Below are positions 10,257 through 64,000 of a stretch of 64,000 nucleotides of DNA, one piece after another; the first letter of the stretch is position 1, and every line of letters starts with the position of its first letter. Location of the stretch: the IMG/VR virus record IMGVR_UViG_3300045988_079665; one strand, 5' to 3'. The notes under the pieces were generated by a model, which did no database searches, was not told the origin of the DNA, and saw only the letters and a list, made by a program, of their open reading frames with translations. Source of the DNA: a virus. The position numbers and the translations under genes were made by a program.

Positions 10257-10419
10257 TCAGATTCATTGCCTCCAATCCAACCATCTAAGCTATTTGCCAT
10301 ACAAGCAATCACAGCCGCTACCAGCAGTACCCATTTGTTGTTATAACCGCGCAGAATTAGTGTGTATAGCACAACAGATGTGACCATACTGATCGCCTTA
10401 GTCCATTTTCTCAGATTAC

Positions 10420-12105
10420 TCAATTAAAATATTCACTCCAATCAATTTCATTTTCTTTTGGCTTATCAATAATCTCATATCGCTCAATAATTGCTTGAGG
10501 CTTAATCTGACCATTATATTCATTCAATCCAAGCGATACTACCACCTCAATAGATTTGCCTTGTGCTGATTCAAATTGAGTTGCTTCTTCATTACTAACA
10601 AAGAATTTGATGAACTCAACGCCATCTTGAATCAGCTTAACAGTAGTTGAACGATTGCGATAAATATAGATTTGAGGGGATGTTAAAATACAATGAAGTA
10701 ACGGCTTGTTTACATCCTTGCCCCATAGGATATTATTTTCTACACACACATTTGCAAGATTGCGTGTGATATTATTAGGCTCGATTTGAGCTGCTACCTC
10801 AATATCTGGCTCTACGTCCAAGTCAAGCCCATCTAAGAATCGTGCAAATCGTTTGAGGTTGGACTTCTTCACGGTTATACCAGCTGCGGCATCATGTCCT
10901 TGACACTTGGCTAATCCTGATTCATTGATAATCTCAAGCAAATCAATAGGACTGCGCATCGAACCAGACCATGTTGTGCTATTTAGTTCTATCAGCAGGA
11001 ATGTGGGCTTATTATATTTATCACAGAATTTATTGGCTACAAGCCCTAAATAAGATTTATTCTCAGGTTCACCAAAACCGATAATAACCTTATGAGACGT
11101 ATCAAGTCCATCTGACAGCTTATCTACTACCTTCTTGACTTGATAATCCTGCTTAGATTTTACGGCTTTCATAACCTTTACAGCAGCTTCTGGCTCAATC
11201 TTACCAATCAGCGCATCAAAGAATAGCCGTTTAGTAGACTGGTCGTCACTACGAGCCAGTGCATTAGCAAGAGGCGCAATACCAAATGCAACACCCTCTG
11301 GATTAACGCCGCGATTACAACAATGCTCTAAGCAATATTTAATAAATGGATTGGTTGGATTAGTCAAGCCGTCATATACATATTTGCGGTTCTCAGGTGA
11401 ACGTAAGCTGCAAATATCAGAGATCAGGCTAACAGCTACTAGGTCTTTGAAAGATTGAGTCGAGTCGAGTGCACAAGCAAATTTTTCTACAACTCCTGTA
11501 CCGCTAATGTCGGTATTGCAAGTATATGTGACCTTAACACCATTATAAACTCGCTCAACTAGCTCAAGTTGGTCATCCGGCATTGGTGGAATAATAGCAC
11601 TATTATATGGATTGACTACAACGGCGTGTCTATTCTCTTTTTCAATGATATGGTGGTCAAGAACAATAACCTTGATACCATGTTCATATAGCTCTCTACA
11701 AGCGTCAACCTCACTCGACCCAGCATCAGGGATAATGAGCATATCAATATTTGCGGCAAGAATATCTGGCAGCAGATCAGTACACCCGTGTTGTTTGCCA
11801 GTATGGGCAAAGATAATTGGCTCTACCTCTGGATGATATTCTTTACATAGCATATAGGCAATAGCAGCAGAACAAGCGCCGTCCATATCAGAGTCAATAA
11901 CGATTCCAATTCTACCTATATCTCCATGAAGCATATCAACAGCCACATCCATGTTCTTATACATATCAGGCGATTGATATTCAATACTATCTGGATTTAG
12001 ATATGTGTCAATATCGGCTATCCCACAAGCAGATAAATATTCCCCTAAAAATGTGGCTTCATTAAGGGAATCAAGCAGTGGATGAATCTTAATCTGAATC
12101 ACCAT
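10420..12105 (-). CDS. recJ: RecJ-like DHH-family single-strand DNA exonuclease
   Basis: DHH motifs DSDMDGACS, IIPDAGS, VLDHH and DHHA1 GHDAAAG. Start set at the internal Met (MVIQIK), because the longer ORF to 12171 overlaps the upstream gene. Confidence 0.85.
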   Translation of the reverse strand: MVIQIKIHPLLDSLNEATFLGEYLSACGIADIDTYLNPDSIEYQSPDMYKNMDVAVDMLHGDIGRIGIVIDSDMDGACSAAIAYMLCKEYHPEVEPIIFAHTGKQHGCTDLLPDILAANIDMLIIPDAGSSEVDACRELYEHGIKVIVLDHHIIEKENRHAVVVNPYNSAIIPPMPDDQLELVERVYNGVKVTYTCNTDISGTGVVEKFACALDSTQSFKDLVAVSLISDICSLRSPENRKYVYDGLTNPTNPFIKYCLEHCCNRGVNPEGVAFGIAPLANALARSDDQSTKRLFFDALIGKIEPEAAVKVMKAVKSKQDYQVKKVVDKLSDGLDTSHKVIIGFGEPENKSYLGLVANKFCDKYNKPTFLLIELNSTTWSGSMRSPIDLLEIINESGLAKCQGHDAAAGITVKKSNLKRFARFLDGLDLDVEPDIEVAAQIEPNNITRNLANVCVENNILWGKDVNKPLLHCILTSPQIYIYRNRSTTVKLIQDGVEFIKFFVSNEEATQFESAQGKSIEVVVSLGLNEYNGQIKPQAIIERYEIIDKPKENEIDWSEYFN

Positions 12106-12798: not shown

Positions 12799-12827
12799 AT
12801 TATATCATAAAGAGGTTGATTTGTCAA
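12799..12827 (-). promoter_or_regulatory. sigma-A type promoter TTGACA-17-TATAAT
   Basis: attata at 12799-12804 and tgtcaa at 12822-12827 on the plus strand. Confidence 0.75.
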
Positions 12828-34829: not shown

Positions 34830-35368
34830 AATTTCCTTTTAATTTCCTTTCGATTTCTAATAAAATTTTATTAAAACAAGTCGCAATGTTCATGCGCATA
34901 TTGACTTGATATATAGGGTTATTTTGTCGCACTATTAACTACTTACAGGTACTCACTTCACCAAGCCCTATACTATTTGCGCGGAATAGGATTATCACCA
35001 CACTATAAGCACATTTTCCAGTTTTGCTCTTCGGATGGTACTAGATGAGATTCGACCAACAGCCAACCTTAGCAGTGACGCGCGTTATTTACTAAGGATT
35101 TTTAGAATTGCCACACTCTCTACAAATTCATGTTAAATTGAATTTACAGTTGCGCAACCATCTTAAAATCAAGAGTGTGGCGACGTTGCCTCATAGCATC
35201 AAGTGGTCAGCTATCAACTATTCAGCAACTAGCATTATAACCTATAAACTAGACTATCCGCAGTGACCAAATCTTGAGGACTGTCTTACAAAGCTAGGAT
35301 TTTCGGCTTTTCCACCAGACGGCTATCAAGTGTGCTTACAATGCTAGTAGAGGCATGATAGACGTTTT

Positions 35369-35441
35369 TGACCGTGGTAGGATTCGAACCTACATCTCAT
35401 CCGCTATGAACGGAGAGTATTACCAATTAGGAGACGCGGTC
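35369..35441 (-). tRNA. tRNA-shaped element with Met-type CAU anticodon loop but no pairing D-stem
   Basis: GACCGCG/CACGGUC acceptor (one C-A mismatch). A14/G18G19/A21 are in place. Anticodon arm CUCCG-UUCAUAG-CGGAU, T arm GUAGG-UUCGAAU-CCUAC, A73. D-stem UCCU vs AUAC pairs at only 1 of 4 positions. Confidence 0.4.
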
Positions 35442-35448
35442 ATATGGA

Positions 35449-36637: not shown

Positions 36638-36666
36638 ATTATAGCATACTTGATTTCATTTGTCAA
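36638..36666 (-). promoter_or_regulatory. sigma-A type promoter TTGACA-17-TATAAT driving the ORF-free RNA locus
   Basis: attata at 36638-36643 and tgtcaa at 36661-36666. The upstream TGA stop lies inside the -35. Confidence 0.75.
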
Positions 36667-37329: not shown

Positions 37330-37422
37330 TGGTACTGGCGCTCGGACTCGAACCGAGATTTTGCGGCAATCGACCGCTAAACTGTGTATAGGACAGCTGG
37401 CTTACCATTAACCGACACCAGC
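37330..37422 (-). tRNA. class II (long variable arm) tRNA with non-canonical anticodon loop CCUAUAC (nominal anticodon UAU, C33)
   Basis: Full cloverleaf: GCUGGUG/CGCCAGU acceptor (2 G-U), D arm GGUU-AAUGGUA-AGCC, anticodon arm GCUGU-CCUAUAC-ACAGU. It has a 23-nt variable arm with a GCGG/CCGC stem, T arm CUCGG-UUCGAGU-CCGAG, A73 and encoded CCA. Confidence 0.6.
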
Positions 37423-51874: not shown

Positions 51875-53035
51875 TTATTCATCCTCCTCATTTTCATCAC
51901 AATTTTCATCTACAAAATGGACATCTACATTGAAAATTTCTTTCAGAACATCAATAGCTTCTTTTGGCTCGATGCGGAAAAATTCTCTATCTGGGTTGAC
52001 CCGCTCTTTGTCGAAATATTTATGGATATTATTTTCCAGCTCAAAGCAATCATCACTGAATACAAAACAATGAGCATGATATGGTTCTGGCAAGCTGCTT
52101 GAGCTAAGTTCACGCACTCTTAATGCAGGATTCAATCTTCTAGTGCAACCGAGCTTTACCAATCCGGGCAAGCTTGGTGAACTAATTACATATAGCCAAC
52201 CAGCTTTGCTATGTGATTCACGATAAGCAATAGAATCGAGCCGCTTGTCAATACTAGCTAATTGAGATTTAATTCTATTACGCTCATCGTCTGTTAGCGC
52301 TTTATCAAACGCAATATTCATTGCTTTCTTTTCTTCAAGCAATTTAGCGCGTTCTCTAGCAATATCAGCAAGCAACTGTTCCTGTTCTTTTAATCTGCGC
52401 TTTTCTTCACGGATTCGCGCCTTTTCTTCTTTCTGTTTAACCTTAATTGCTAAGTTGATATATAGCATATCAAGCCGCGCCTTTACATATTCAGCATTGA
52501 GCGCCAATCCGACTTTATTTGCCTTAGACTGATAAGAATTAAATTTATTCTTAATCAATTCTTTGCTCTTAGCAATATTGCTTGTTGTTATGGATTTTTC
52601 TTTGTTGTCAATATATTCTGACATAGCATAGCACAATCCGCGCCCATATACATCCTGCATTTCTTTACCGCGCCTAGCAGAATCATTGAGGGTATATCCT
52701 TGCTCAATGCGATATAGACCAGTATTTACGGCAGATTCAATTTTGCTTTGTAGCTCATAGCGTTTATGCTCAAGTTCATCTAGTGAATCTTGATAATATG
52801 GGATATTATAATCCTGCATTTCTTCAATGGTATGGATTTTGCCATTTAGAGCATTAAGGACGGATTGAGCTTCTTTTGCGGCGATTTCGGCACTTTCTGC
52901 TGATTTACGGCTTTTTTCTTCTTTTGTTTCAAGAGAATCAATTTCCTTATACAACTCTTGAATCTTAAAGTCTAGTAAATCGATATAATGCTCAAGTTCT
53001 TTCTTCTTCTTGTTCATCTTGAAAATCTCGAACAC
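51875..53035 (-). CDS. DUF4041-like coiled-coil + T5orf172/MUG113 (GIY-YIG-related) domain protein
   Basis: Long Glu/Lys coiled-coil N-terminal region. C-terminal GWLYVISSPSLPGLVKLGCTRRLNPALRVRELSSSSLPEPY...EFF. Confidence 0.6.
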   Translation of the reverse strand: MFEIFKMNKKKKELEHYIDLLDFKIQELYKEIDSLETKEEKSRKSAESAEIAAKEAQSVLNALNGKIHTIEEMQDYNIPYYQDSLDELEHKRYELQSKIESAVNTGLYRIEQGYTLNDSARRGKEMQDVYGRGLCYAMSEYIDNKEKSITTSNIAKSKELIKNKFNSYQSKANKVGLALNAEYVKARLDMLYINLAIKVKQKEEKARIREEKRRLKEQEQLLADIARERAKLLEEKKAMNIAFDKALTDDERNRIKSQLASIDKRLDSIAYRESHSKAGWLYVISSPSLPGLVKLGCTRRLNPALRVRELSSSSLPEPYHAHCFVFSDDCFELENNIHKYFDKERVNPDREFFRIEPKEAIDVLKEIFNVDVHFVDENCDENEEDE

Positions 53036-53242: not shown

Positions 53243-53271
53243 ATTATATCACAGCCATTTGCATTTGTCAA
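53243..53271 (-). promoter_or_regulatory. sigma-A type promoter TTGACA-17-TATAAT
   Basis: attata at 53243-53248 and tgtcaa at 53266-53271. Confidence 0.7.
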
Positions 53272-53436
53272 GCATAATTTTTGGCAAATTGATTTTTCCC
53301 ATCAATTTAACTATTATCTACGAATGTATATGAGTAGATAATAGTTAAATTGTAATTATATATTATTATATATACTAATAGATATTATAACATAGAAAGT
53401 ATGTAATGTCAATAGAAAAATTTTTTATTTTACCAC

Positions 53437-53465
53437 TTGACAAAGTGATGAATATATGGTATAAT
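53437..53465 (+). promoter_or_regulatory. sigma-A type promoter TTGACA-17-TGgTATAAT (extended -10)
   Basis: ttgaca at 53437-53442 and tataat at 53460-53465, with TG at 53457-53458. Confidence 0.75.
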
Positions 53466-53475
53466 ATAGTAAATA

Positions 53476-53497
53476 AGTAAATACGTTAGTATTTACT
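53476..53497 (+). promoter_or_regulatory. perfect 9-bp hairpin AGTAAATAC-GTTA-GTATTTACT in the 5' leader
   Basis: Read directly; shares the AATACGTTAGTATT core with 47257-47274. Confidence 0.55.
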
Positions 53498-53558
53498 TAT
53501 ACATTGTTTCTTTCTTTTGGTTCTTTTCTTTCTTAGAATTTATAGATAGGAGATAAAT

Positions 53559-54137
53559 ATGGAAAATAATAACGTTGTATATAAGCACACTAACTTAGAA
53601 AATGGATTGGTCTATTATGGGATTGCTGAAAATTATGTAACAAGATGGAATGACGGCTTTGGATACCAAACAAATCAGAGATTTTGGAAAGATATAGTAA
53701 AATATGGATGGAAAAATTTTAAGCATGAGATACTTGTGGAAAATCTAACTCGCGATGAGGCAAAATTTTATGAAGGTATGCTAATTCAAGAAACAGGCTC
53801 GTATCTTCCTGAGAACGGATATAATCAAAGTCTTGGCGAACATATGAATTATCAAGAAGTAACACCTGATGATATTAGAGATGACATTATTAGAACACAA
53901 AGACCAAGAACTGGGCGTGCAGGTACACCAGTTGTTTGCAATGGAAAGACGTATTTGACGATTGCTGAATTGTCCGAAGAAATCAATGAAGATGCTGGTG
54001 TGCTTGCTCAGATGCTAAGTCCTGCTTGCACAAGAAAAATGTCTAAAATTTATGAAGATATGGGGCTTAGATATGCTACAGAAGATGAAATTCTTGCCTG
54101 TGTGAATGAGCGAATGGAAAGAGATATCTTGGGTTGA
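53559..54137 (+). CDS. GIY-YIG homing endonuclease
   Basis: N-terminal VYKHTNLENGLVYYGIA (GIY...YIG spacing) and downstream R/E residues. A C-terminal region has a DNA-binding-like GTPVVCNGKTYLTIAELSE module. Confidence 0.65.
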   Translation: MENNNVVYKHTNLENGLVYYGIAENYVTRWNDGFGYQTNQRFWKDIVKYGWKNFKHEILVENLTRDEAKFYEGMLIQETGSYLPENGYNQSLGEHMNYQEVTPDDIRDDIIRTQRPRTGRAGTPVVCNGKTYLTIAELSEEINEDAGVLAQMLSPACTRKMSKIYEDMGLRYATEDEILACVNERMERDILG

Positions 54138-54162
54138 CAAATAATCAAATATATGATATAAT
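54134..54162 (+). promoter_or_regulatory. sigma-A type promoter TTGACA-17-TGaTATAAT
   Basis: ttgaca at 54134-54139 and tataat at 54157-54162. Precedes the RNAP operon. Confidence 0.75.
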
Positions 54163-54191: not shown

Positions 54192-54335
54192 TTGTGGAGC
54201 GAGATGAGCTATAACTGGTATGTATCGGAAGATACAGAGCCAGAAGTATGGGATGATGAATATGAACCAACTGAGCGCGATTGGGTGCTTTGGATATATG
54301 GTAGTTCAGAGAATGAATTAGAGGTGATTTATTAA
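54192..54335 (+). CDS. small acidic protein (about 43-47 aa)
   Basis: AAGGAGG at 54174-54180, TTG at 54192 or ATG at 54204, TAA at 54333-54335. Translates as ...MSYNWYVSEDTEPEVWDDEYEPTERDWVLWIYGSSENELEVIY. Confidence 0.35.
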   Translation: MWSEMSYNWYVSEDTEPEVWDDEYEPTERDWVLWIYGSSENELEVIY

Positions 54336-56924
54336 GTGCCATTAACAGAGTTCTGTTATATACCTTCTGTGGCAACGGATGCTTTTTATACGCCAGAGGA
54401 ACAAGTAATACATAATCGACTTGTCAAGCTATATGCCTTGAGAATGCGCGAGAAGAATGGTCAGAATCGAAAATGGCGTGTTTCATCAATTAACCGTGTT
54501 ATCAAGAAGCATAAAGATGAACTTGTTGAGTTGCTGAGAAAATCGCTTGAAGACAACATTACAAGAGAACTTAATCCAGATGCGGTAACAGATAAGACAA
54601 TTATTAACCTGTTTTGTTCTGAGTTGACTCGTAGCCTTGGCATTAAGACATTTGAGCGAAGTGACAAAATTATTATTGTCAATGTTTTCTTTTTCGAGGT
54701 ATTAAACAGCATCATTCATAATGGATTCAATTACAATGGGGAGCATTATATTTTCTATTCATGTGGCGCTGGCATGATACGTACAAAGCGATTTATGGCT
54801 GTTCGTGAAAAAGATTATTTGGCGGTTGAACAAACCCTCATGTGTGGACTGACCATTGAATCAATCAATGCGCTGGGTGGCATGAATGAAAATAAACTAT
54901 TGAGCTATAAGAGCCTTATGGCATCTGCAACAGATAGAATTACAGACTTTGACATAGACCGTTGCATTATAGTTGATGATTTCGAAATGCCAGTTATGGC
55001 TGAATCAGATTTCATTGATTATACGGATTATAGCATTACGCGTAAAACATCAGAGACAATTATAGCTGAAACTGACGGTTGGGGAATGTGTTGCAAGCCC
55101 GGATTTAAGACACAGATTGTTCGTGCGCCTTGGATAAAAGGACTAGTGTCATACTTTGATTTTAGGGCATGGTTAAAGGAATATTGTCCTGCCGACGATT
55201 GGACTGTAACTGATATATACGGAAGAGAATGGAATATTATTGTGGATGACATTCAGTATATATTAACTAAATCAATGTTTAAGTTGTATAAATTTTATCC
55301 ATCTTGGCTTTGCTACAAGACTAATTTTAAGAGTTATGGTTGTTATTTTGGATGCTGTAAAGTTGAGGAAGATTATATACCAAAGGCGCGAATCAATTAT
55401 CAGATGCTTCAATCTCTAAGTGATATGACGGATAATGAGATTGAGCGGCTTATTGCCAAGACAGCAGATGAAATTAATAGTGTCGGGAGAGATTATCAAA
55501 CTACCATGAGACTATTAGGCGCGACTGAATACAATCAAACAAAATCAGCCATGCAAGAAGCGTTGACAATATATCCAGAATTATTTAAAGATGCGTATAA
55601 CCGGGAGTTGTTGAAACAGACAAAGAAAAGTTTGGTAAAACAAGCAAAAGGTGGCAGATTGAGAATTAACGGCAAATACCTGTTTATTTCGCCTGACCCT
55701 GTGGCATTTTGTGAGTGGTTGTTCAAAGGTGAGCAATTCCCAACTGGTATACTTGAGAATGGAGAGGTTTATACTAATCAATTCAAAGATGGTGACGAGC
55801 TTGATTGTTTGAGAAGCCCACACTTGTATCAGGAACACGCGGTTAGAATCAACAAGCGAAATGGGCTGACCGATAAATGGCTTGGCGGAACAAAATGCAT
55901 ATATTTCAGTGCACACGATATGATTAGTCGTATATTACAACAGGACTTTGATGGGGATATTTCCTTGGTTGTGAAGGATAAGACGTTGACAACTGTGGCA
56001 AAGCGCAATATGCAAGGAATTGTACCGTTATCGTATGACCTCAAAAAAGCACGTGGCGGTATTATTGATGCGGATAGACTGTATGAAGGTGTAAGTACTG
56101 CATATACAGGTGGGTCGATTGGCCCGATTAGTAATGCAATCAGTAAGGTAAAAAATGCTAATGGTGGTAAAATGACTGAGGAGCAAATTAGAGTAATTGC
56201 TTGGCTTACAATGAAGAACAATCAAATTATTGATTTTGCGAAAACGTTATGGAAAAGTGAGCCACCAAAAGAAATTGCAGATATTATAAAAAAATATACA
56301 AAGTCAAAATTGCCTCATTTTTTTATCTATGCCAAAGACAAAGACCCAGATACTCAAGTTGAGTTGCCAAATAATTCCACGATGAATCGTATATCAGCCA
56401 AAATCCCTACTTCTCGAATTCGATATAATAACAAGATTGGGAAATTCGATTGGACGATGTTGATAAATAAATCAGTCGATTATACTACTAGAGAAAATTC
56501 ACCAATCATTGAGCGGTATAATTGGTGGATGTGGAATCAGCGCCGATTTGATTATGGCGATGACCCGCATATCAATGAGGACGATTTATATAAATATCGT
56601 CGCATAGCACAAGATATTGTGGAATATAGCAACGAGCCACTAGATGTTGTGGCAAATAGCCTAGTTGCTTATCTATATACAGTTAAAAAATCAAGCAATA
56701 AGAAAATGCTGTGGGCTTGTTTCGGTTGGACGATTGTAGAGAATTTGAGAACCAATACGGCGCAACTTAATCCAATCTGTCCCATTTGCGGCAAGCGCTT
56801 CAAGCCGCGAGATGTATGTCAGCATTATTGCTCAGAGGAATGTTATAAGAAAGCAGATAATCAGAGGCGTACTGAATCGCGCGAAGCCCCACCTGTCCGC
56901 ACGGGGGACATGTTAAAACAGTAG
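54336..56924 (+). CDS. YonO-like single-subunit two-barrel RNA polymerase
   Basis: 862 aa. DFDGD metal-binding motif at nt 55944-55958 (ILQQDFDGDISLVV, compare beta-prime NADFDGD). An upstream YIFYSCGAGMIRTKRFMAV segment resembles the first-barrel motif of RdRP/YonO-type enzymes. C-terminal zinc ribbon CPICG...CQHYCSEEC. GTG start behind GAGGTG. Confidence 0.7.
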   Translation: MPLTEFCYIPSVATDAFYTPEEQVIHNRLVKLYALRMREKNGQNRKWRVSSINRVIKKHKDELVELLRKSLEDNITRELNPDAVTDKTIINLFCSELTRSLGIKTFERSDKIIIVNVFFFEVLNSIIHNGFNYNGEHYIFYSCGAGMIRTKRFMAVREKDYLAVEQTLMCGLTIESINALGGMNENKLLSYKSLMASATDRITDFDIDRCIIVDDFEMPVMAESDFIDYTDYSITRKTSETIIAETDGWGMCCKPGFKTQIVRAPWIKGLVSYFDFRAWLKEYCPADDWTVTDIYGREWNIIVDDIQYILTKSMFKLYKFYPSWLCYKTNFKSYGCYFGCCKVEEDYIPKARINYQMLQSLSDMTDNEIERLIAKTADEINSVGRDYQTTMRLLGATEYNQTKSAMQEALTIYPELFKDAYNRELLKQTKKSLVKQAKGGRLRINGKYLFISPDPVAFCEWLFKGEQFPTGILENGEVYTNQFKDGDELDCLRSPHLYQEHAVRINKRNGLTDKWLGGTKCIYFSAHDMISRILQQDFDGDISLVVKDKTLTTVAKRNMQGIVPLSYDLKKARGGIIDADRLYEGVSTAYTGGSIGPISNAISKVKNANGGKMTEEQIRVIAWLTMKNNQIIDFAKTLWKSEPPKEIADIIKKYTKSKLPHFFIYAKDKDPDTQVELPNNSTMNRISAKIPTSRIRYNNKIGKFDWTMLINKSVDYTTRENSPIIERYNWWMWNQRRFDYGDDPHINEDDLYKYRRIAQDIVEYSNEPLDVVANSLVAYLYTVKKSSNKKMLWACFGWTIVENLRTNTAQLNPICPICGKRFKPRDVCQHYCSEECYKKADNQRRTESREAPPVRTGDMLKQ

Positions 56925-57012
56925 GAAATATATGGATAAAATTAACTCACCACAATATGTTGTGGTAGACTAATAGGGAGACATATCTTTGAAATGAAGG
57001 GTGGTGAATGTG

Positions 57013-58104
57013 ATGGCATACATGGCTTATAAATTTAGGATGTATCCCAATACTGAACAGGAAAATCTTATAATAAAGACATTTGGTTGTGTTCGGTTTA
57101 TTTATAATAAGATGCTTGAAGATAAAATAAAGTTTTATGAATGTACAAAGAAAAGATTAAATAATACTCCCGCACAATATAAAAAAGAATATCTTTGGTT
57201 AAGAGAAGTTGACGCTTTTGCTTTGTGCAACGCACAAATTCATTTGCAAGCAGCATATAATAATTTTTTTAAGAATCCAAAGAGCGGGTTTCCTAAATTT
57301 AAGAGTAAGAAAACGGGCAAGAATAGTTATACAACAAATAACCATTCGGAAAATATAAGGATTGTAGATAAAACTATTAAACTTCCGAAACTTGGAATGG
57401 TTAAAATAAAGCAACACAGAGAAATCAAGCAAAATCAAAAAATTAAGTCTGTTACCATCACAAGAAAACCATCTGGGAAATACTTTGTATCAATTTTAGT
57501 TGAATATAATATTGTTGAAAAGTCGGTAAAATTAAATAAGGAAAAATCGATTGGACTTGATTATTCAAGTCATAGCTTTTACGTCGATAGCCAATGTGTA
57601 GAAGCAGATTATCCACGATTTTATCGAGCGTCTCAAGATCATTTGTCCAAAGAGCAAAGGAAGTTGGCTACAATGAAGAAAGGTAGCAACAATTATTATA
57701 AGCAAAAAGTAAAAATTGCTACTATTCAAGAAAAAATAGCAAACCAAAGAAAAGATTGGATGCACAAATTAAGTACAGAATTATCAAATAAGTACGATTA
57801 TATTTGCGTTGAAGATATAAATTTACAACAAATGTCACAGCATTTAAATCTTGGGAAATCTACATATGACAATGGATTTGGTATGTTTAGAGATATGCTT
57901 TTTTATAAATTAAAGCAAAGAGGGAAAAAGTTCATCAAGATTGATAAATGGTATCCATCTAGTAAAATGTGTAGATATTGTGGCACGATAAATTCTAATT
58001 TAACTCTAAGCCAAAGAGTATGGACATGTGAATGTGGAAAAGTGCTTAATAGGGATGAAAATGCAGCGATTAACATATTGAACGCTGGATTAAGTATGAT
58101 ATAA
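57013..58104 (+). CDS. tnpB: TnpB RNA-guided endonuclease (OrfB_IS605 + zinc ribbon)
   Basis: MAYKFRMYPNTEQ N-terminus. RuvC triad candidates IGLDYS, ICVEDINL and NRDENAAINI. Zinc ribbon CRYCG...CECG. Confidence 0.85.
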   Translation: MAYMAYKFRMYPNTEQENLIIKTFGCVRFIYNKMLEDKIKFYECTKKRLNNTPAQYKKEYLWLREVDAFALCNAQIHLQAAYNNFFKNPKSGFPKFKSKKTGKNSYTTNNHSENIRIVDKTIKLPKLGMVKIKQHREIKQNQKIKSVTITRKPSGKYFVSILVEYNIVEKSVKLNKEKSIGLDYSSHSFYVDSQCVEADYPRFYRASQDHLSKEQRKLATMKKGSNNYYKQKVKIATIQEKIANQRKDWMHKLSTELSNKYDYICVEDINLQQMSQHLNLGKSTYDNGFGMFRDMLFYKLKQRGKKFIKIDKWYPSSKMCRYCGTINSNLTLSQRVWTCECGKVLNRDENAAINILNAGLSMI

Positions 58105-58200
58105 ATAAAAAATAACCGTAGGGGCTACGGAGTTAGCTTGTTGATACTTATGCTTTAAGCATATTGAGCAAGAAATTTGTTGAAACACAAATAGCCCACT
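58105..58200 (+). ncRNA. 3' part of the putative omega (right-end) RNA scaffold of the TnpB element
   Basis: Stacked hairpins immediately after the tnpB stop: CCGTAG/CTACGG, GCTTG...GCAAG enclosing ATGCTT/AAGCAT, and TTTGT/ACAAA. Confidence 0.45.
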
Positions 58201-58218: not shown

Positions 58219-58638
58219 TTGCATAAAAATAAATATCCTCGGCTAGGCAAAGCCGATATGAGCAAAGAGCTACGACGGCGCACAGGCGTTGATTCTAAAA
58301 TCATTGAGCTAGTGTTAAGAAACTATCATGACATTATTCGTGAGACACTACAACATGGCGTGGAATATTCTTTGCCAGATATTGGTGTTATTACATTCCG
58401 CGACCACCCACCAAAGCCAGCTGGCGAATATTGGAACGGATTCCAAAAGCGGCGTATGTACTATCCTGACAGAATGGGATATTATCGACTAGAGTTTAAG
58501 GCTGAGAAACATATGGCTAGTTATGTAAAAGCTGGTACATTGTATGGTAAAGGCCCGACAAAAGAAGAATGGGATGCTTGGGTATTAGAGAATTATCCTA
58601 ATAATCCTAAGTTTGCTAAGGAAGAAGAAGATGGCTGA
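58219..58638 (+). CDS. divergent HU/IHF-fold DNA-binding protein (paralog 1)
   Basis: MSKELRRRTGVDSKIIELVLRNYHDIIRETLQHG...DIGVITF...extended arm...RLEFKAEKHM follows HU topology. The start is either TTG 58219 (RBS GGGAAAGGA) or ATG 58258. Confidence 0.5.
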   Translation: MHKNKYPRLGKADMSKELRRRTGVDSKIIELVLRNYHDIIRETLQHGVEYSLPDIGVITFRDHPPKPAGEYWNGFQKRRMYYPDRMGYYRLEFKAEKHMASYVKAGTLYGKGPTKEEWDAWVLENYPNNPKFAKEEEDG

Positions 58639-59194
58639 ATATAATAAGCTGAATCAAGAATTTTATGCTTATGCTGGTGGATTGCTCAATGTATCGCCAC
58701 AGACTGCCAAGAAATATTGGATGGGGTTTGTTGATACTATCATCCATATTCTTCATTTTGATGGCAAATGCCAAATGCCAAGTGTAGGCACATTTACACT
58801 AGAAGAATTGCCTGAGCGTAGAGTAATGGCTAAGAATGAGCAGGGTGAACTTGTTGAGCAAATTAACCCTGCTTGGTTTAAGATATTATACAAATATAAT
58901 GAGGATTTTCTTAATAACGTAAATGGACGCGGCGTTACAAAGAAATATCGTAGGCGTGTTCGTGAACGTAAGTTGACACCAAATGATCTCAAGCTGATAA
59001 CTCAAGCTGAAATGGAACGAACGGCAAAGCGAACATTAGAGCAAATGCAAAATGAGCGCATTGAGAAAGCAAAGCAACAGAGCTATGATGATTTTATCAA
59101 TGTCATCAATCAGAAAAAAGAAGATTATGAACGGAAAAAGAAGGAAAAGGAACAGAAATTGAATGAATCTAATGAAGATACGACAAGCGACTGA
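58631..59194 (+). CDS. divergent HU/IHF-fold DNA-binding protein (paralog 2) with Lys/Glu-rich tail
   Basis: NQEFYAYAGGLLNVSPQTAKKYWMGFVDTIIHIL...SVGTFTLEE...FKILYKYNEDF. Start set at MAEYNK, overlapping the upstream stop. Confidence 0.45.
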   Translation: MAEYNKLNQEFYAYAGGLLNVSPQTAKKYWMGFVDTIIHILHFDGKCQMPSVGTFTLEELPERRVMAKNEQGELVEQINPAWFKILYKYNEDFLNNVNGRGVTKKYRRRVRERKLTPNDLKLITQAEMERTAKRTLEQMQNERIEKAKQQSYDDFINVINQKKEDYERKKKEKEQKLNESNEDTTSD

Positions 59195-60347
59195 GCTGCT
59201 AGATAGCAAATTGATTGACTTGCAAGAATGGACGGCTCGTTGTCTTGGTGAGGATTATAGGGGCGTCTGGTCAGAGGAATATTTACGTCGATGTGCTGTG
59301 TTTGTTCGCAATATGCTAAATGGCGCAGACGATTGTGAGTCAGACGAAAAAGACGCTGAGATTTTAGCCCAGCTTAAAGAAGCAAAAATTGAGTTAGAGA
59401 AAGAACGCAAGAAATTACAGAGCGAGAATATTCAGTATGTTCAAAATCAGAGACTTGACGCAAGAGCAGACTTGATTCAAGAAAAGATTGCTGAGTCGAT
59501 TAAGAACCTTGAGCCGTTTACTATTCGTGAGTTTAACATTCTGCCGCAAATGAATGTAAGTGGACTTCTTTGTATTTCTGACCTTCATGCTGGCTCGACC
59601 TATGAAATCAAGGGTGCATATAATGAAATTGTAAACAAGTACAATTTTGATATTATGAGGGCGCGGCTTGATGGGTTGCTTAACAAGATGTGTAATGATG
59701 ACAACTGCATCTGGATTGATGATATTACGGTTGCTGTGCTCGGTGACTGCGTAGAGAATATTTTACGTACATCTAGTTTAACTAAGCTAAGAGAGCCAGT
59801 TATTGATACGGTTATCAAGTTGTCTGAATATCTGGCTGATTGGTTTGTTGAGTTACATGACCGGCTTGAAATTCCTGTTAATGTGGTGATGGTTGGTGGT
59901 AACCATGATGTATGCCGCCCGTTGACATCTAAGCCACAGTTTGAGGAAGAAAATCTAGGTAAAATCATTGTATGGTATCTACAAGAGCGGTTAAAGTCAG
60001 TAGATGGAATTACAGTTGATGATTACACAGATTGTGCTATTAAATACATTAAGAACAATGCAATCATGCTTCATCATGGGGATGGCGGCGATGTAACTGA
60101 GACAATGCGATATTTTGAAAATTTATATAATATTGACATTGATGAATGCTACGTTGGGCATCTACACCGACAAGAAATGAAGAATGCTGGTATTACTGAG
60201 TTAGGTGATAAACTGTGTTGGCGCGTTGGCTCGGTATGCGGTGTTGATGGATTTGCCAAGTCTATTCGTAAAGCATCAAGACCATCTTGTATGTTTACTA
60301 CATATTCAGAAGATGGTGCAGAATGGCGTAAAACATTTTATCTTTAA
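59163..60347 (+). CDS. calcineurin-like metallophosphoesterase with coiled-coil N-terminus
   Basis: Motifs ISDLHAG (DxH), LGDCVEN (GD), GGNHD, LHHGD and VGHLHR. Confidence 0.7.
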   Translation: MNLMKIRQATELLDSKLIDLQEWTARCLGEDYRGVWSEEYLRRCAVFVRNMLNGADDCESDEKDAEILAQLKEAKIELEKERKKLQSENIQYVQNQRLDARADLIQEKIAESIKNLEPFTIREFNILPQMNVSGLLCISDLHAGSTYEIKGAYNEIVNKYNFDIMRARLDGLLNKMCNDDNCIWIDDITVAVLGDCVENILRTSSLTKLREPVIDTVIKLSEYLADWFVELHDRLEIPVNVVMVGGNHDVCRPLTSKPQFEEENLGKIIVWYLQERLKSVDGITVDDYTDCAIKYIKNNAIMLHHGDGGDVTETMRYFENLYNIDIDECYVGHLHRQEMKNAGITELGDKLCWRVGSVCGVDGFAKSIRKASRPSCMFTTYSEDGAEWRKTFYL

Positions 60348-60349
60348 TA

Positions 60350-60378
60350 TTGACAATCAATAGATTATGTGATATAAT
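60350..60378 (+). promoter_or_regulatory. sigma-A type promoter TTGACA-17-TGaTATAAT firing into an ORF-free region
   Basis: ttgaca at 60350-60355 and tataat at 60373-60378, with TG at 60370-60371. Confidence 0.75.
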
Positions 60379-60384
60379 ACAACT

Positions 60385-61306
60385 ATGGAATTGCGGCTAA
60401 TATCTGCGGAGTTAGCCTTGGCTTGGGGATGCGTCCTACAAGTCTCATAATAGAGGAAAAGTCTGAACTCTTTTCGCCGTCACAAGACGGAATTTAGAAC
60501 AATCGGTAGCGTCAGTTGCAAATGGCGCTACCAACTTAAATTGATTCATTCTCTGCTAGGTGATAGCTATTTTAGCTGTGTTAATCATGCTTGTGGGGCG
60601 ATTGACCCACCTAGTAGAGTTGGATATCTTCGCCGTGAATCTGCAATTCAGCAGAGCCTGATACGAGCGTGTCATATACTGTGGCGAGATATGACAATTT
60701 ATCTCGTGTACCATGCGTACATGGAGTTTTCAGGGTCGTTTATGGCGGCTCTTGCAAAATCCTATCCTTGACGATAGGCGTATAGCAACAGGTGTGTTAT
60801 ACGAGCGTATGAAGCATAGAACCGGGTTGTCTTTCGGCAATATGTGGACGTTAATCGAAGGTTTGCGGTATACCATATGGCAACAATGAAAACCGCATCG
60901 CCATTAGAACGATGCAAAGGCGAGATGTGATGGCATCTAATACCCATTGCACCATAATACCGAGCGACACGGTAAATATGTCGCACTTGTAAAATGATAA
61001 AACATAACAATGAGTGGCGCTCGATACCGGCATGCGCTTGATAAATACCGGACATTGATGAGTCCCTAGGCAAGGACAATAAACTACCTGTCGCTACTAC
61101 TCATTGGCGGCTATGAATATCCGAAAGGAGGTCACTATTCTCTTGAATTATCCACTGGTTTATCCGAAGCATAATTAAAGAAAGGATGGTGGTCAGAGCC
61201 AATCGGCTCATATCTACAATAAGCCCAACTCAATGGGAACTGTTGTTTAACTGAATATTGAACCTTGACAAATACAAAGCAGCTGAGAGCAATCTTGGCT
61301 GCTTTG
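60385..61306 (+). ncRNA. ~0.9-kb promoter-to-terminator ORF-free transcript; candidate large structured RNA
   Basis: No RBS-led ORF. At least 9 local 5-7-bp hairpins (for example 60505-60532, 60685-60706, 60779-60803, 60895-60915, 60964-60984). GC-richer by eye than the flanks. Confidence 0.5.
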
Positions 61307-61316
61307 TCATATTTAT
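61275..61316 (+). terminator. terminator-like hairpin ending the ORF-free transcript
   Basis: CAAAGCAGC (61275-61283) pairs with GCTGCTTTG (61298-61306), followed by TCATATTTAT. Confidence 0.5.
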
Positions 61317-61349
61317 AGGAAAGTAAACGGAACAGAAAGGAATGAGAAT

Positions 61350-62174
61350 ATGTTTTGCCCATATTGCGGCAAGGAAAAGCAAGACAGCCAATTCTATAAA
61401 AGCCCAATCAAAACGGGCGAATATATTAAGCCATGCAAATCATGCGTAACTGAGATATATAAACAAGCTCTTGAATCTACTAAAGACCAAGGCGCGGCAT
61501 TATGGTCAACTTGTATGCAGACTGGCATTCCCATGAGACGTGCTGAATATACGGCTTGTCTTGATACGCTAGAAAAGGCGGCTAAAGGTAAAAAGCCTAG
61601 TCTATTTATGTTGTATCATACATACTTATCAACATCTCCTGATAAATTAACAGGCGTATGGGATAGCGATATGGAGTTGTCTAATTTCAAGGATTTGGGC
61701 GATGTAGCTAAGGGTGAAACAGATGAAGTTGCGCTTAAAGCAAGATGGCGCAAACAATGGGGCGGTGACTATGAAGATGAGGACTGTCAATGGCTAGATG
61801 ATATGTTCGATAGCTATACGGCAGATATATTTGAAATGGATACCGCTATGGAAATGCGTTATCGTGATCTGTGTAAGCTAGAACTTGAACAGTATAAAAA
61901 TGGTGTTAATAAAGACACTCAAGCACAGATCAAAACGTTAATGTCACTACTTAAACTTGATGATTTTAAGAGTAATCAGAAGTCGGACGCGGAACGAGCA
62001 TTTGAGAAACGTATAGCTTGGGTGGAATATACTAAACCATCTGAATGTGAAGATTTGACAAGATTCGTAGATATGGTTGGATATGAAAAGGACAAGGGTG
62101 AAAAGATGCGTAGCTTGCGCAACGCTGTTGCTGGCACTAGAGATTATCCAGCAATCCCGAAGGAGGAAGCATAA
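61350..62174 (+). CDS. putative small terminase / packaging DNA-recognition protein
   Basis: Immediately upstream of and overlapping (TAATG) the large terminase. N-terminal zinc ribbon CPYCG...CKSC. Confidence 0.4.
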   Translation: MFCPYCGKEKQDSQFYKSPIKTGEYIKPCKSCVTEIYKQALESTKDQGAALWSTCMQTGIPMRRAEYTACLDTLEKAAKGKKPSLFMLYHTYLSTSPDKLTGVWDSDMELSNFKDLGDVAKGETDEVALKARWRKQWGGDYEDEDCQWLDDMFDSYTADIFEMDTAMEMRYRDLCKLELEQYKNGVNKDTQAQIKTLMSLLKLDDFKSNQKSDAERAFEKRIAWVEYTKPSECEDLTRFVDMVGYEKDKGEKMRSLRNAVAGTRDYPAIPKEEA

Positions 62175-64000
62175 TGCGCTCTAGGATGGGCGGTCTTAGA
62201 GAATCATTTAAGGCTGATAAACTTCGCGCCGTATCTGGCATATCTAAAAAAATAGATAGTGCCTTAGAAGATAACATCATAGAGTGGACAACTCTATTCA
62301 GACGAAATTGGGATATATTTGCTGAATTTTATCTAGGGATTCCATTAAAACCATATCAGCGTCAGGCATTACATGAAATTGGTGTATCAGATGTGTACTT
62401 TTGGAGAGCAGGACGTGGCGGCGCAAAATCGTTTATTACTATGCTTGCGGCGGTCTGCAAGCTACTATTGTATCCAAACTGTCAGATAGTTATTACATCC
62501 TCTACTGTTGACCAAGCTAATAAGATGGTCAAAGAAAAGCTAGAGAAAGAATTGATAAAAAAGTTATCTCAACTACTTTTGCTTTATTATGAAAAAGACT
62601 GGATAAAAATAACAAAGCCGAACGATGGATATTATGTAGAGTGTACACTTAACAATTCGTCCATTACTGTTCTTGCCCCTGTTGAATCAGCTAGAGGTTC
62701 GCGTTCTAACTTTACCATATATGATGAGGTTGCCATTATGAAGAAAACGGCAATAGACCAAATCTTTGATGGGATGTTGTTTCCAAGGCAACCAAATTAT
62801 TTAAGCAATCCTGCATATTCTGGAAACAAGAGATGGATAGAAGAATCTAAGAGTATATATCTAACATCATCTAAGTTCAAGTTCCAGTGGTGGTATAGAT
62901 TGTGGTGCGATTGTGTAACAGGATATTATGTTGATAAGCGTACTAAATATGGCATATTCGCAACTGACTTTTTTGATAATATAGAAAATGGCTTAAAAAC
63001 ATGGGGTGATTATCGTAGAGCTAAAAGGCAGAACGACGATATATCATTTAGGACAGAATACTTAAATGAAGCGATTGGCGAGTCAGAGGATTCTTTCTTT
63101 AGTCTTGAATCATTTAAGGAAAATCAAGTTATTACAGATGCGTTTTGCCCACCAAAACCGATGGATTTATTGGTTGCTAGTGAATTAGAAGATGACGAGA
63201 AAAAAGACGATGAAGTGCGCCTCATTGTATCTGACTTTGCTTGGACAACAACTGGCAAAAAAGCAAACGAATCGGATAATAGCATTGCTATATGTATAAG
63301 AGCAAAGTGGAAAAAAGACCATTTTGATAAATATGTAGAATATATTGAACTGCTACCAACGGCAGATGACGCAGATGGTTGTGCTGATAGGTTAAAAGAA
63401 TTGTTTTGGTTGTATCAAGCAGACTATTTAGTGCCTGATGCTAGATCGGGTGGCGAAGCGGTTATGATAGCTTTATCTAAACCATATACCAATGAACGTT
63501 ATTCGGCGTTCATCAATAATCATGGCCTAACTATGGCTGATAAAAAAGAATATCATGTGGCTCGACCCGATAAGCTAGATTACTATAGAGCCAATGCAGT
63601 AGACCCAAATGCTTATCCTTGTATCATACCTATTGTTGGTAGTGAAACGCTCAATACGTCTTATTGGAAAGCAACTAAAATGTCACTTGAGAATAATCGT
63701 ATAAAATTCTTGATAGGGATGAGCGATAAGCAAGATGTTATTGTTGAAACTGGCGAATATTACAAATACACCGGCGAACAGATAGCAGATATACTTGCGC
63801 CTCATGGCAATACTGATTTGCTTATATCGGAGGCAGTTAATTTAACCACCATATTCAAAGGCGAAAACATTAAACTGGAAGCGCCGAGAACAGGGCATCG
63901 TGACCGTATTGTTACATTAGCTATGGGTATTTTAATATGTGATTATATTGAAAATGAATGGAATAGACAGAATCATGCTGAAGAATATGATTTAGATGAC
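62174..64000 (+). CDS. terL: terminase large subunit, truncated by the window end
   Basis: Open frame of 609 codons with no stop. Walker A-like RAGRGGAKS, Walker B FTIYDEVA, and acidic nuclease-domain residues (IVSDFAW). Not in the ORF track because no stop lies within the window. Confidence 0.8.
   Translation, partial: MRSRMGGLRESFKADKLRAVSGISKKIDSALEDNIIEWTTLFRRNWDIFAEFYLGIPLKPYQRQALHEIGVSDVYFWRAGRGGAKSFITMLAAVCKLLLYPNCQIVITSSTVDQANKMVKEKLEKELIKKLSQLLLLYYEKDWIKITKPNDGYYVECTLNNSSITVLAPVESARGSRSNFTIYDEVAIMKKTAIDQIFDGMLFPRQPNYLSNPAYSGNKRWIEESKSIYLTSSKFKFQWWYRLWCDCVTGYYVDKRTKYGIFATDFFDNIENGLKTWGDYRRAKRQNDDISFRTEYLNEAIGESEDSFFSLESFKENQVITDAFCPPKPMDLLVASELEDDEKKDDEVRLIVSDFAWTTTGKKANESDNSIAICIRAKWKKDHFDKYVEYIELLPTADDADGCADRLKELFWLYQADYLVPDARSGGEAVMIALSKPYTNERYSAFINNHGLTMADKKEYHVARPDKLDYYRANAVDPNAYPCIIPIVGSETLNTSYWKATKMSLENNRIKFLIGMSDKQDVIVETGEYYKYTGEQIADILAPHGNTDLLISEAVNLTTIFKGENIKLEAPRTGHRDRIVTLAMGILICDYIENEWNRQNHAEEYDLDD

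Follow-up and report, generated by a model that had tools for sequence, protein, structure and literature searches.

A predicted YonO-type single-chain RNA polymerase gene behind a host-type promoter in an uncultured phage genome

Introduction

To our knowledge, of the single-chain relatives of the cellular multisubunit RNA polymerases that have been characterised, the YonO protein of the Bacillus subtilis prophage SPbeta alone transcribes DNA, and its family is said to have been described bioinformatically before the experimental characterisation of 2017. Here we analyse a gene of apparently the same type, located at positions 54336..56924 on the plus strand of a 64,000-nucleotide stretch of viral DNA (IMG/VR record IMGVR_UViG_3300045988_079665), the whole of which we refer to as the window, and predicted to encode a protein of 862 residues. 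YonO is a ~100-kDa single polypeptide that contains both double-psi beta-barrels of the cellular RNA polymerases, and it acts as a processive DNA-dependent RNA polymerase with a strong preference in vitro for DNA templates, nucleoside triphosphate substrates and RNA products; its 3D>3N mutant is inactive (PMC5467207). In the absence of YonO, 37 SPbeta late genes are silent (Forrest et al. 2017, PMC5467207). The promoter and cofactors of YonO were left open in 2017 (PMC5467207), and we found no later paper that settles either.

By mapping the supplementary primers of Forrest et al., we bracketed the YonO start in SPbeta (locus L001) to positions 10307-10508, which is 300-500 nucleotides beyond the end of yonN and 1.2 kb or more ahead of yonK. 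It follows that the YonO transcript opens with a long untranslated leader, which parallels a region of the window that is free of open reading frames (ORFs). The coordinates of B. subtilis ncr1052 are compatible with this placement of the start (PMC2965217).

An original prediction, made by a model from the letters of the window and a list of its ORFs, had proposed a YonO-like polymerase expressed from a host-type promoter. The gene adds no new kind of enzyme; its clade is useful for comparative footprinting, with dozens of related ~100-kb phage genomes permitting an analysis that is impossible with SPbeta alone.

Results

Homology, conserved motifs and predicted fold of the polymerase

The gene opens with a GTG codon, which is the earliest possible start because an in-frame TAA lies directly upstream, and continues uninterrupted for its full length. 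The BLASTP alignment of the encoded protein with SPbeta YonO comprises 843 positions, of which 40% are identical (query residues 3-832 of 862, E = 0), and the two proteins match over 96-99% of the length of the window protein. A tblastn search of 50,697 phage records returned yonO of SPbeta/SPBc2 (40% identity, 96% query coverage, E = 5e-169) and all SPbeta-like phages, with Clostridium phage D-1873 and Psychrobacillus phage Perkons at 39-40% identity. The unannotated family phrog_8308 was matched over its full length by the polymerase (E = 1.4e-225), and a PHROG named 'RNA-dependent RNA polymerase' was matched weakly. At E <= 0.1 the window protein did not match PF05183, the family of RNA-dependent RNA polymerases (RdRPs), and it scores below the gathering threshold of that family; the family was reached by 22 of 39 aligned relatives (best E = 7.8e-16), and the link to it is therefore transitive. 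The polymerase family is known and large, as a word-indexed search recovered 2,095 homologues and an exhaustive search at least 1,218 clusters at 50% identity, and what is new here is a member from an uncultured ~100-kb phage lineage. The identical protein is encoded on 12 metagenomic contigs, the longest of ~100 kb.

Conservation was assessed in a 39-sequence alignment that combines the window's own clade (53-96% identity) with the YonO clade (38-44%), and among 115 full-length cluster representatives at 33-44% identity to the window protein. The defining element is the catalytic metal-binding loop DFDGD (D537, D539, D541; 55944..55958, plus strand), located within ILQQDFDGDISLVV and aligned on DNDGD of YonO; every coordinate given for it and its 862-residue ORF in the original prediction was correct. 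Residues D537, D539, G540 and D541 are invariant in the alignment, and the DxDGD pattern is kept in 39/39 aligned homologues (38-96% identity) and in 114 of the 115 representatives, where the second position varies among V, N, F, C, W, Y or S. Judged by this sequence conservation, DxDGD is not a chance pentapeptide.

Upstream, the first-barrel (beta-like) motif AGMIRTK (residues 145-151; 54768..54788, plus strand) lies in YIFYSCGAGMIRTKRFMAV (residues 138-156), where GAGMIRTKR aligns on SAGQIRTKK of YonO and A145, G146, I148, R149 and K151 are invariant, bearing out the earlier suggestion of a barrel motif at this site. A strict regular expression, AGxIRxK, found it in 70/115 distant representatives in a count made without alignment. 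LRSPH (residues 492-496; 55809..55823, plus strand), which lies upstream of the catalytic loop in the second (beta-prime-like) barrel, aligns with YonO as LRSPHLYQEH on LRSPHLFREH, with R493, P495 and H496 invariant; we take this motif to be the equivalent of the beta-prime RxP motif. Thus, the motifs of both barrels align with YonO.

The chain ends in a cluster of four invariant cysteines (C815, C818, C832 and C836; 56778..56843, plus strand), a probable zinc module in which CPICGKRF...YCSEEC spans residues 815-836 and CPICGKRFKP...YC aligns on CCICGKAFKP...YC of YonO. A relaxed C4 pattern occurs near the C terminus of 97/115 representatives. The zinc ribbon that had been proposed here is borne out in its cysteines and is a candidate as to its type; no Pfam zinc-finger family reached threshold, and the weak matches mixed treble clefs and ribbons (RING_UBOX, NinG, DUF2116 'probable treble clef', Zn_ribbon_TiaS). 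A sequence search of the PDB with the polymerase gave a weak match of the cysteine motif to TiaS alone, and found no YonO structure.

The gene order around the polymerase is similarly informative, running small ORF, polymerase, HU, 193-residue gene, YonJ-like exonuclease, ORF-free gap, YonG-like, TerL and portal, and, apart from the place of the gap, it matches yonP-yonO-yonN-gap-yonK-yonJ...yonG-yonF in SPbeta. Relatives in IMG/VR keep the window order until polymerase identity falls to about 50%.

An AlphaFold2 model built from the 39-sequence alignment (predicted local distance difference test 88.2, predicted template modelling score 0.83) was compared with known structures using Foldseek, and the significant matches in the PDB were solely two-barrel polymerases. 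Maize and Arabidopsis RDR2 were matched at E = 1.4e-18 to 1e-16 with template modelling (TM) scores of 0.53-0.57, and QDE-1 at E about 1e-13; taken together, RDR2 and QDE-1 structures gave E 1e-18 to 1e-12, TM 0.45-0.57 and identities of 11-13%. The single-subunit RNA polymerases of Thermus phages, P32 gp64 and P74 gp62, followed at E about 1e-5 and TM 0.27-0.39, with marginal matches to the largest subunits of Pol II and Pol I (Rpb1, A190; E 0.3-2). In BFVD the top matches were phage proteins named RdRP (E = 4.5e-35). The model supports the prediction of both double-psi beta-barrels in one chain.

Because full-length homology, the aligned triad and barrel motifs, the fold search and the SPbeta-like gene order agree, the YonO-like identity originally proposed is supported: the ORF appears to encode an orthologue-grade relative of YonO, a two-barrel single-chain RNA polymerase. 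The protein carries every feature of YonO-family membership that is open to testing in silico. The two outcomes that the original prediction had named as refuting it, a lack of structural similarity to two-barrel polymerases and a DFDGD motif that varies among homologues, were both checked and neither was observed. DNA-dependent RNA synthesis, the reliance of the late genes on this enzyme and the timing of its action are properties that we infer from SPbeta by homology.

The gene is intact in the window. Homologous genes are often split, either precisely at the codons for DxDGD (query residues 537/539) or close to residue 633, at an NNxxIDxAKT motif. Such split homologues include P0289, P0311, P0335, P0337, P0356, P0366, P0379 and P0374, as well as P0241, P0268, P0274, P0334 and P0350 and those of phages Goe11, Goe14 and SPR; the GenBank annotation of Goe11 and Goe14 reads yonO_1 / hypothetical / yonO_2. 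This pattern points to introns or homing elements that have entered these homologues where conservation is highest.

Distribution of host-type promoters

A consensus scan placed a sigma-A promoter, P2, ahead of the small ORF and the polymerase gene at 54134..54162 (plus strand), where TTGACA (54134-54139) and TATAAT (54157-54162) are separated by 17 nucleotides; it matches the consensus at 12/12 positions, has a TG-extended -10 element and is the promoter that had been named originally. A second site of the same quality, P1 (12/12, TG-extended -10), lies at 53437..53465 on the plus strand. A GIY-YIG gene separates the two in the window, its stop codon overlapped by the -35 element of P2, and in relatives without this gene P1 and P2 are spaced by about 95-125 nucleotides. 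The third plus-strand consensus promoter, also perfect, is found at 60350..60378, at the very start of an ORF-free insert.

Allowing one mismatch, TTGACA-N17-TATAAT occurs 20 times in the window (16 perfect sites and 4 with one mismatch) against an expectation of 1.3, and 0/100 shuffles reach 20; P2 is therefore not a chance match. Nearly all 20 sites have a TG-extended -10 element and most begin TTGACAAA. Seventeen serve the minus-strand block (for example 12799-12827, 36638-36666, 53243-53271 and 53384-53412) and three are on the plus strand (53437, 54134 and 60350). Across the clade, a sigma-A consensus site, often doubled, is kept shortly before the small ORF, 185-210 nucleotides ahead of the polymerase start, and in SPbeta an 11/12 site lies ahead of yonP. 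Together, these observations support synthesis of the polymerase by host RNA polymerase, in line with the host-type expression first suggested.

The pattern across 14 relatives is uneven: 76 sigma-A sites were counted in 138 kb upstream of the polymerase gene, 5 in 76 kb between the polymerase and the YonG-like gene (at the YonJ-like 3' end or the head of the gap insert), and 2 in 99 kb of late block, both of them 11/12 and one on the wrong strand. The host-type promoters thus end where the late block starts, a distribution that is consistent with, and not proof of, transcription of the late block by a non-host polymerase.

The sites at about 53243-53465 form a divergent promoter hub. Just downstream of P1, at ~53475-53498 (coordinates counted by hand), a perfect 10-bp inverted repeat, AAGTAAATAC-GTTA-GTATTTACTT, is followed by a T-rich tract and is kept in L008; possible functions are an operator or an attenuator hairpin at the 5' end.

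A conserved, structured leader at the late-gene junction

The ORF-free stretch at 60348-61349 consists of two parts, a variable insert and a conserved leader. The insert (about 60348-61115, plus strand, with 60385..61115 following the promoter) is modular and structured, begins exactly at the 60350 promoter, and folds more stably than its shuffles (z = -4.45). It is present at 77-95% identity in many relatives, missing from L008 and L019, and elsewhere truncated at the promoter end. A drum-RNA-like match within it (60804-60900) is sub-threshold, at 37.6 bits vs a gathering score of 43. The insert is probably the 'nearby large RNA' that the original prediction had listed among possible partners of the polymerase.

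The second part, a leader of ~230 nucleotides (61116..61349, plus strand) defined by comparison and covariation, immediately precedes the first packaging gene and is conserved in every relative, even those in which the whole gap measures 254-273 nucleotides (261 in L019). Subclades between which BLAST no longer yields an alignment share its architecture. In order, it comprises GAAAGGAGGTCAC, a mini-ORF of 10-14 codons that starts with TTG, another AAGGAGGTGATC box, a stem-loop block (TATCTAC-stem-TAAG-hairpin-AACT-stem-AACTGAATAT) and a GC-rich hairpin at the 3' end, after which comes the YonG-like gene's ribosome-binding site. The covarying stem-loop is located at 61208-61258 and the hairpin, terminator-like and with compensatory changes, at 61274-61307, both on the plus strand.

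RNAalifold recovered the 3' stem-loop from 18 sequences, with double changes at 8/10 pairs, and 94.4% of the stem-loop cells are paired vs 65.7% in shuffles (0/500 reach the observed value) and 28-55% in slid controls. For the whole leader, the 7 sequences that align cleanly gave two domains with 15/28 pairs compensatory, the first of which contains the Shine-Dalgarno-like box and the mini-ORF. A covariance model of the stem-loop found 40 loci with one match each, all on the plus strand in the gap, and none elsewhere in 1.6 Mb. Rfam returned nothing at the leader position at E <= 1. The leader is a clade-specific shared element that is not of sigma-A type, and it is a candidate promoter, entry site or attenuator.

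Two narrower proposals were set aside. The mini-ORF is probably not an obligatory leader peptide, because its TTG is lost in L008 and the peptide is unconserved while the base pairs are kept. The octamer ATATCTAC, which occurs both in the clade leader and in the SPbeta primer-extension bracket, was considered as a shared late-promoter motif and is treated as a coincidence, because the stem-loop model finds nothing in SPbeta or the ~40%-identity loci.

Apart from this leader, the orphan Rfam motifs drum, DUF3800 and skipping-rope occur above their gathering scores on the late strand of YonO-type phages (L001 11381-11446; L015 5537-5604; L013 18408-18521; L059 20676-20789; L053 13228-13318). DUF3800-VIII is found in the YonO-transcribed leader of SPbeta and in the YonJ-YonG gap of a relative with a 95%-identical polymerase, drum just after TerL in two relatives, and skipping-rope ~700 nucleotides after a YonO-type gene. 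Such motifs were present in 5/21 loci scanned and in 0/8 prophages from named genomes, so that the general association of drum, DUF3800 and skipping-rope with YonO loci is real but partial.

A small acidic ORF abuts the polymerase gene

The tiny acidic ORF noted originally upstream of the polymerase (54192..54335, plus strand) encodes 47 residues from a TTG codon, or 43 from the ATG at 54204, with 14 acidic residues and 1 basic, and is conserved and co-located in relatives. Its ribosome-binding site is AAGGAGGTG, and its TAA stop abuts the polymerase GTG, suggesting translational coupling. Throughout the window clade the ORF is retained (47-96% identity), in every case abutting the polymerase gene. 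The window protein has W-x-E-M-S-Y at its N terminus, and an N-terminal W-x-[ED]-[MVL]-[SY]-Y with an acidic tail is also found upstream of YonO-type genes in Paenibacillus-type prophages; a small ORF with W-x-[ED]-x-[SY]-Y lies directly upstream in loci L008-L059, L088, L096, L099, L122, L130, L150 and L154. BLASTP gave no alignment of the small ORF with SPbeta YonP, which lines up weakly with the small ORFs in a multiple alignment, and on these grounds homology to YonP is not claimed. We found no published account of YonP function. The small ORF is best regarded as a real conserved gene and a reasonable candidate partner of the polymerase, no more.

Neighbouring genes, insertions and phage lineage

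Downstream of the polymerase, the plus-strand gene at 58219..58638 encodes an HU-like DNA-binding protein of 139 residues, the positional counterpart of SPbeta YonN, which matches PF00216 over its N-terminal part only (24.2 bits vs a cut-off of 22.4). The adjoining gene (58613..59194, plus strand) encodes a 193-residue protein that is kept in relatives and gave no match in family-library searches, the HU model (Bac_DNA_binding) included. An HU-like pair had been proposed here; the first member holds, and the second is not supported, the HU domain being detectable in 58219..58638 alone. Next come a YonJ-like metallophosphoesterase/exonuclease of 394 residues (59163..60347, plus strand; PF27387 YonJ_CC, PF00149 and a PHROG exonuclease) and, beyond the ORF-free stretch, a YonG_N-like protein of 274 residues (61350..62174, plus strand), the first gene of the packaging and structural block, and the large terminase (TerL_ATPase; 62174..64000, plus strand), which runs off the window end. 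The last two assignments come from precomputed Pfam matches, which on the 12 contigs with the identical polymerase name the downstream genes YonJ_CC, YonG_N and TerL.

Two mobile elements flank the polymerase gene and are lineage-specific insertions. Between P1 and P2, a plus-strand GIY-YIG homing-endonuclease gene of 192 residues (53559..54137; PF01541 and a PHROG homing endonuclease) is found at the same site in L049, L054 and L059 and is absent from L008 and L011-L014. In the spacer between polymerase and HU lies a TnpB-only IS605-family element (about 56980..58187, ends approximate; TnpB ORF 57001..58104; OrfB_IS605, Cas12f1-like_TNB), inserted after ...CTAATAGGGA, ending ...CCCACTAGGGA and on the same plus strand as the operon. 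It is unique to the window genome among 90 loci, and absent from the 97%-identical relative L011. The ~80 nucleotides of 3' non-coding sequence in this element are a likely omega-RNA region.

On the opposite strand, the first gene of the divergent minus-strand block (51875-53035) is conserved in relatives and encodes a 386-residue protein with a coiled-coil N-terminal part and C-terminal Pfam matches to T5orf172/MUG113 (GIY-YIG-like). The window also contains two minus-strand tRNA genes, at 37330-37422 and 35368-35442, a tRNA-Met(CAT) and an unusually long (93-nucleotide) tRNA-Ile(TAT).

A near-identity DNA search with 10 kb of the window found no match among the 50,697 phage records, and no relative above 60% identity was found among 185,579 species genomes. 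The closest relatives in the latter (52-59%) sit on short contigs binned to Gastranaerophilales, Muribaculaceae, Bacilli, Rickettsiales and Tenericutes, taxa that are mutually incompatible, and these contigs are therefore probably mis-binned phage.

Discussion

We consider it very probable that the window encodes a YonO-type enzyme that is made by host RNA polymerase and then transcribes the plus-strand packaging and structural block. Host sigma-A holoenzyme would start at P1 (53437) and P2 (54134), and transcription from these promoters would cover the small acidic ORF and the polymerase, HU-like, 193-residue and YonJ-like exonuclease genes. Once accumulated, the phage polymerase would transcribe the packaging and structural block from the YonG-like gene (61350), a block without host-type promoters. 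Initiation or take-over would most likely occur in the ~230-nucleotide leader at 61116-61349, because this is the sole non-coding DNA common to all relatives at the junction. The exact late start site, and any roles for the small ORF, HU and the leader, are speculative. Transcription of the late genes by the polymerase is an expectation based on synteny and on what was shown in SPbeta (PMC5467207), helped by the scarcity of promoters in the late block.

Several observations weigh against this programme. The polymerase itself lies below every family threshold in Pfam and NCBIfam, and its nearest solved folds are those of RNA-templated enzymes, not DNA-dependent ones. In SPbeta the YonJ-like gene follows the leader, whereas in the window it precedes it, and the set of polymerase-dependent genes may therefore differ. 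The covariance model of the stem-loop found nothing in SPbeta, D-1873, Perkons or any ~40%-identity locus, so that the search for a shared non-sigma-A motif ahead of late genes, which the original prediction had proposed, succeeded within the clade and failed beyond it; no shared promoter motif backs a common initiation mechanism with SPbeta. Finally, the 60350 site is a perfect sigma-A promoter directed at the late genes, and host RNA polymerase could contribute to their transcription if the hairpin at 61274-61307 is leaky.

The fold in particular raises the question of whether the enzyme might instead be an RdRP that copies or amplifies phage or host RNAs, such as the structured RNAs nearby. 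The top structural matches are indeed the cellular RdRPs RDR2 and QDE-1, relatives of the protein match PF05183, and several phage records label homologues as RdRP. However, identity to RDR2 and QDE-1 is just 11-13%, while YonO, at 40%, prefers DNA in vitro and is needed for late transcription in vivo (PMC5467207), and the SPbeta-like synteny argues for the same role; we regard an RNA-copying enzyme as highly improbable. The promoter at 60350 bears on a different possibility, in which host RNA polymerase transcribes the late genes from this site or by read-through from P1 and P2, the leader and its hairpin act as an attenuator or antiterminator, and the task of the phage enzyme is narrower or different. 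The terminator-like hairpin with its compensatory changes at the leader end, and the Shine-Dalgarno-like box and 10-14-codon mini-ORF in a covarying stem, would suit such an attenuator. Set against this, close relatives such as L008, L019 and L012 keep the late genes without the 60350 promoter and the insert, the 37 SPbeta late genes are silent without YonO (PMC5467207), and the window polymerase gene is intact with catalytic residues that are invariant in the 39 sequences and DxDGD in 114/115, making late transcription by the host enzyme very unlikely. That we are dealing with an inactive relic, or with a gene that now serves a role other than polymerisation, is scarcely credible: the protein has no match of its own to curated family models and mobile elements (the GIY-YIG gene and TnpB) are invading its neighbourhood, but these sit in spacers, outside the gene, and the uninterrupted full-length ORF, the invariance of all catalytic and barrel residues and the identical protein on 12 independent contigs indicate otherwise.

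A more elaborate arrangement can be imagined, and we put it forward as unlikely in full. It would be a three-part module consisting of the polymerase, the small acidic protein as a specificity or initiation factor or a host-polymerase decoy, and the covarying leader as start or take-over site, with drum, DUF3800-VIII and skipping-rope as YonO-dependent components of late leaders. What the locus adds comes from comparison, and consists of a small ORF, a structured leader, the way in which promoters are distributed and, in late leaders, orphan RNA motifs. Comparison narrows the late-gene control region to some 230 nucleotides that are conserved and structured and singles out one small conserved protein as a candidate partner, and the conserved neighbours may help to find the promoter and cofactors of YonO-type polymerases.

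Among described systems, SPbeta is the closest. The two polymerases are alike in length (839 vs 862 residues), in their 40% identity across the chain and in the aligned DxDGD, AGxIRTK, LRSPH and C-terminal cysteine cluster, and the two loci share an upstream small ORF behind a host-type promoter, a downstream HU gene, then YonJ-, YonG- and TerL-like genes, and a long ORF-free leader before the late genes. In contrast, YonO has DNDGD where the window protein has DFDGD, and SPbeta is a Bacillus prophage, whereas the window derives from an uncultured ~100-kb metagenomic phage; the leader element of the window was not found in SPbeta, and TnpB and GIY-YIG insertions lie beside the polymerase in the window. 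QDE-1 and RDR2 (PF05183), the best structural matches, likewise combine both barrels and a DxDGD loop in a single chain, but they are distant in sequence and belong to RNA silencing, in contrast to the putative phage late-transcription module of the window. The RNA polymerases of Thermus phages P23-45, P74-26 and P32 (gp64/gp62) resemble the window protein in being phage-encoded, small and two-barrelled, and differ in their weaker similarity, their smaller size (about 590 residues) and the lack of shared synteny; the promoters of these single-subunit enzymes are known, whereas that of YonO is not. Finally, DFDGD is presumably the core of the universal beta-prime NADFDGD loop, and the RxP(x)H and Lys/Arg-rich motifs presumably parallel beta-prime and beta (compare Fig. 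1a of PMC5467207), in a protein that differs from the multisubunit RNA polymerases in being roughly one-fourth as large as the core enzyme, with no detectable trigger loop or accessory domains.

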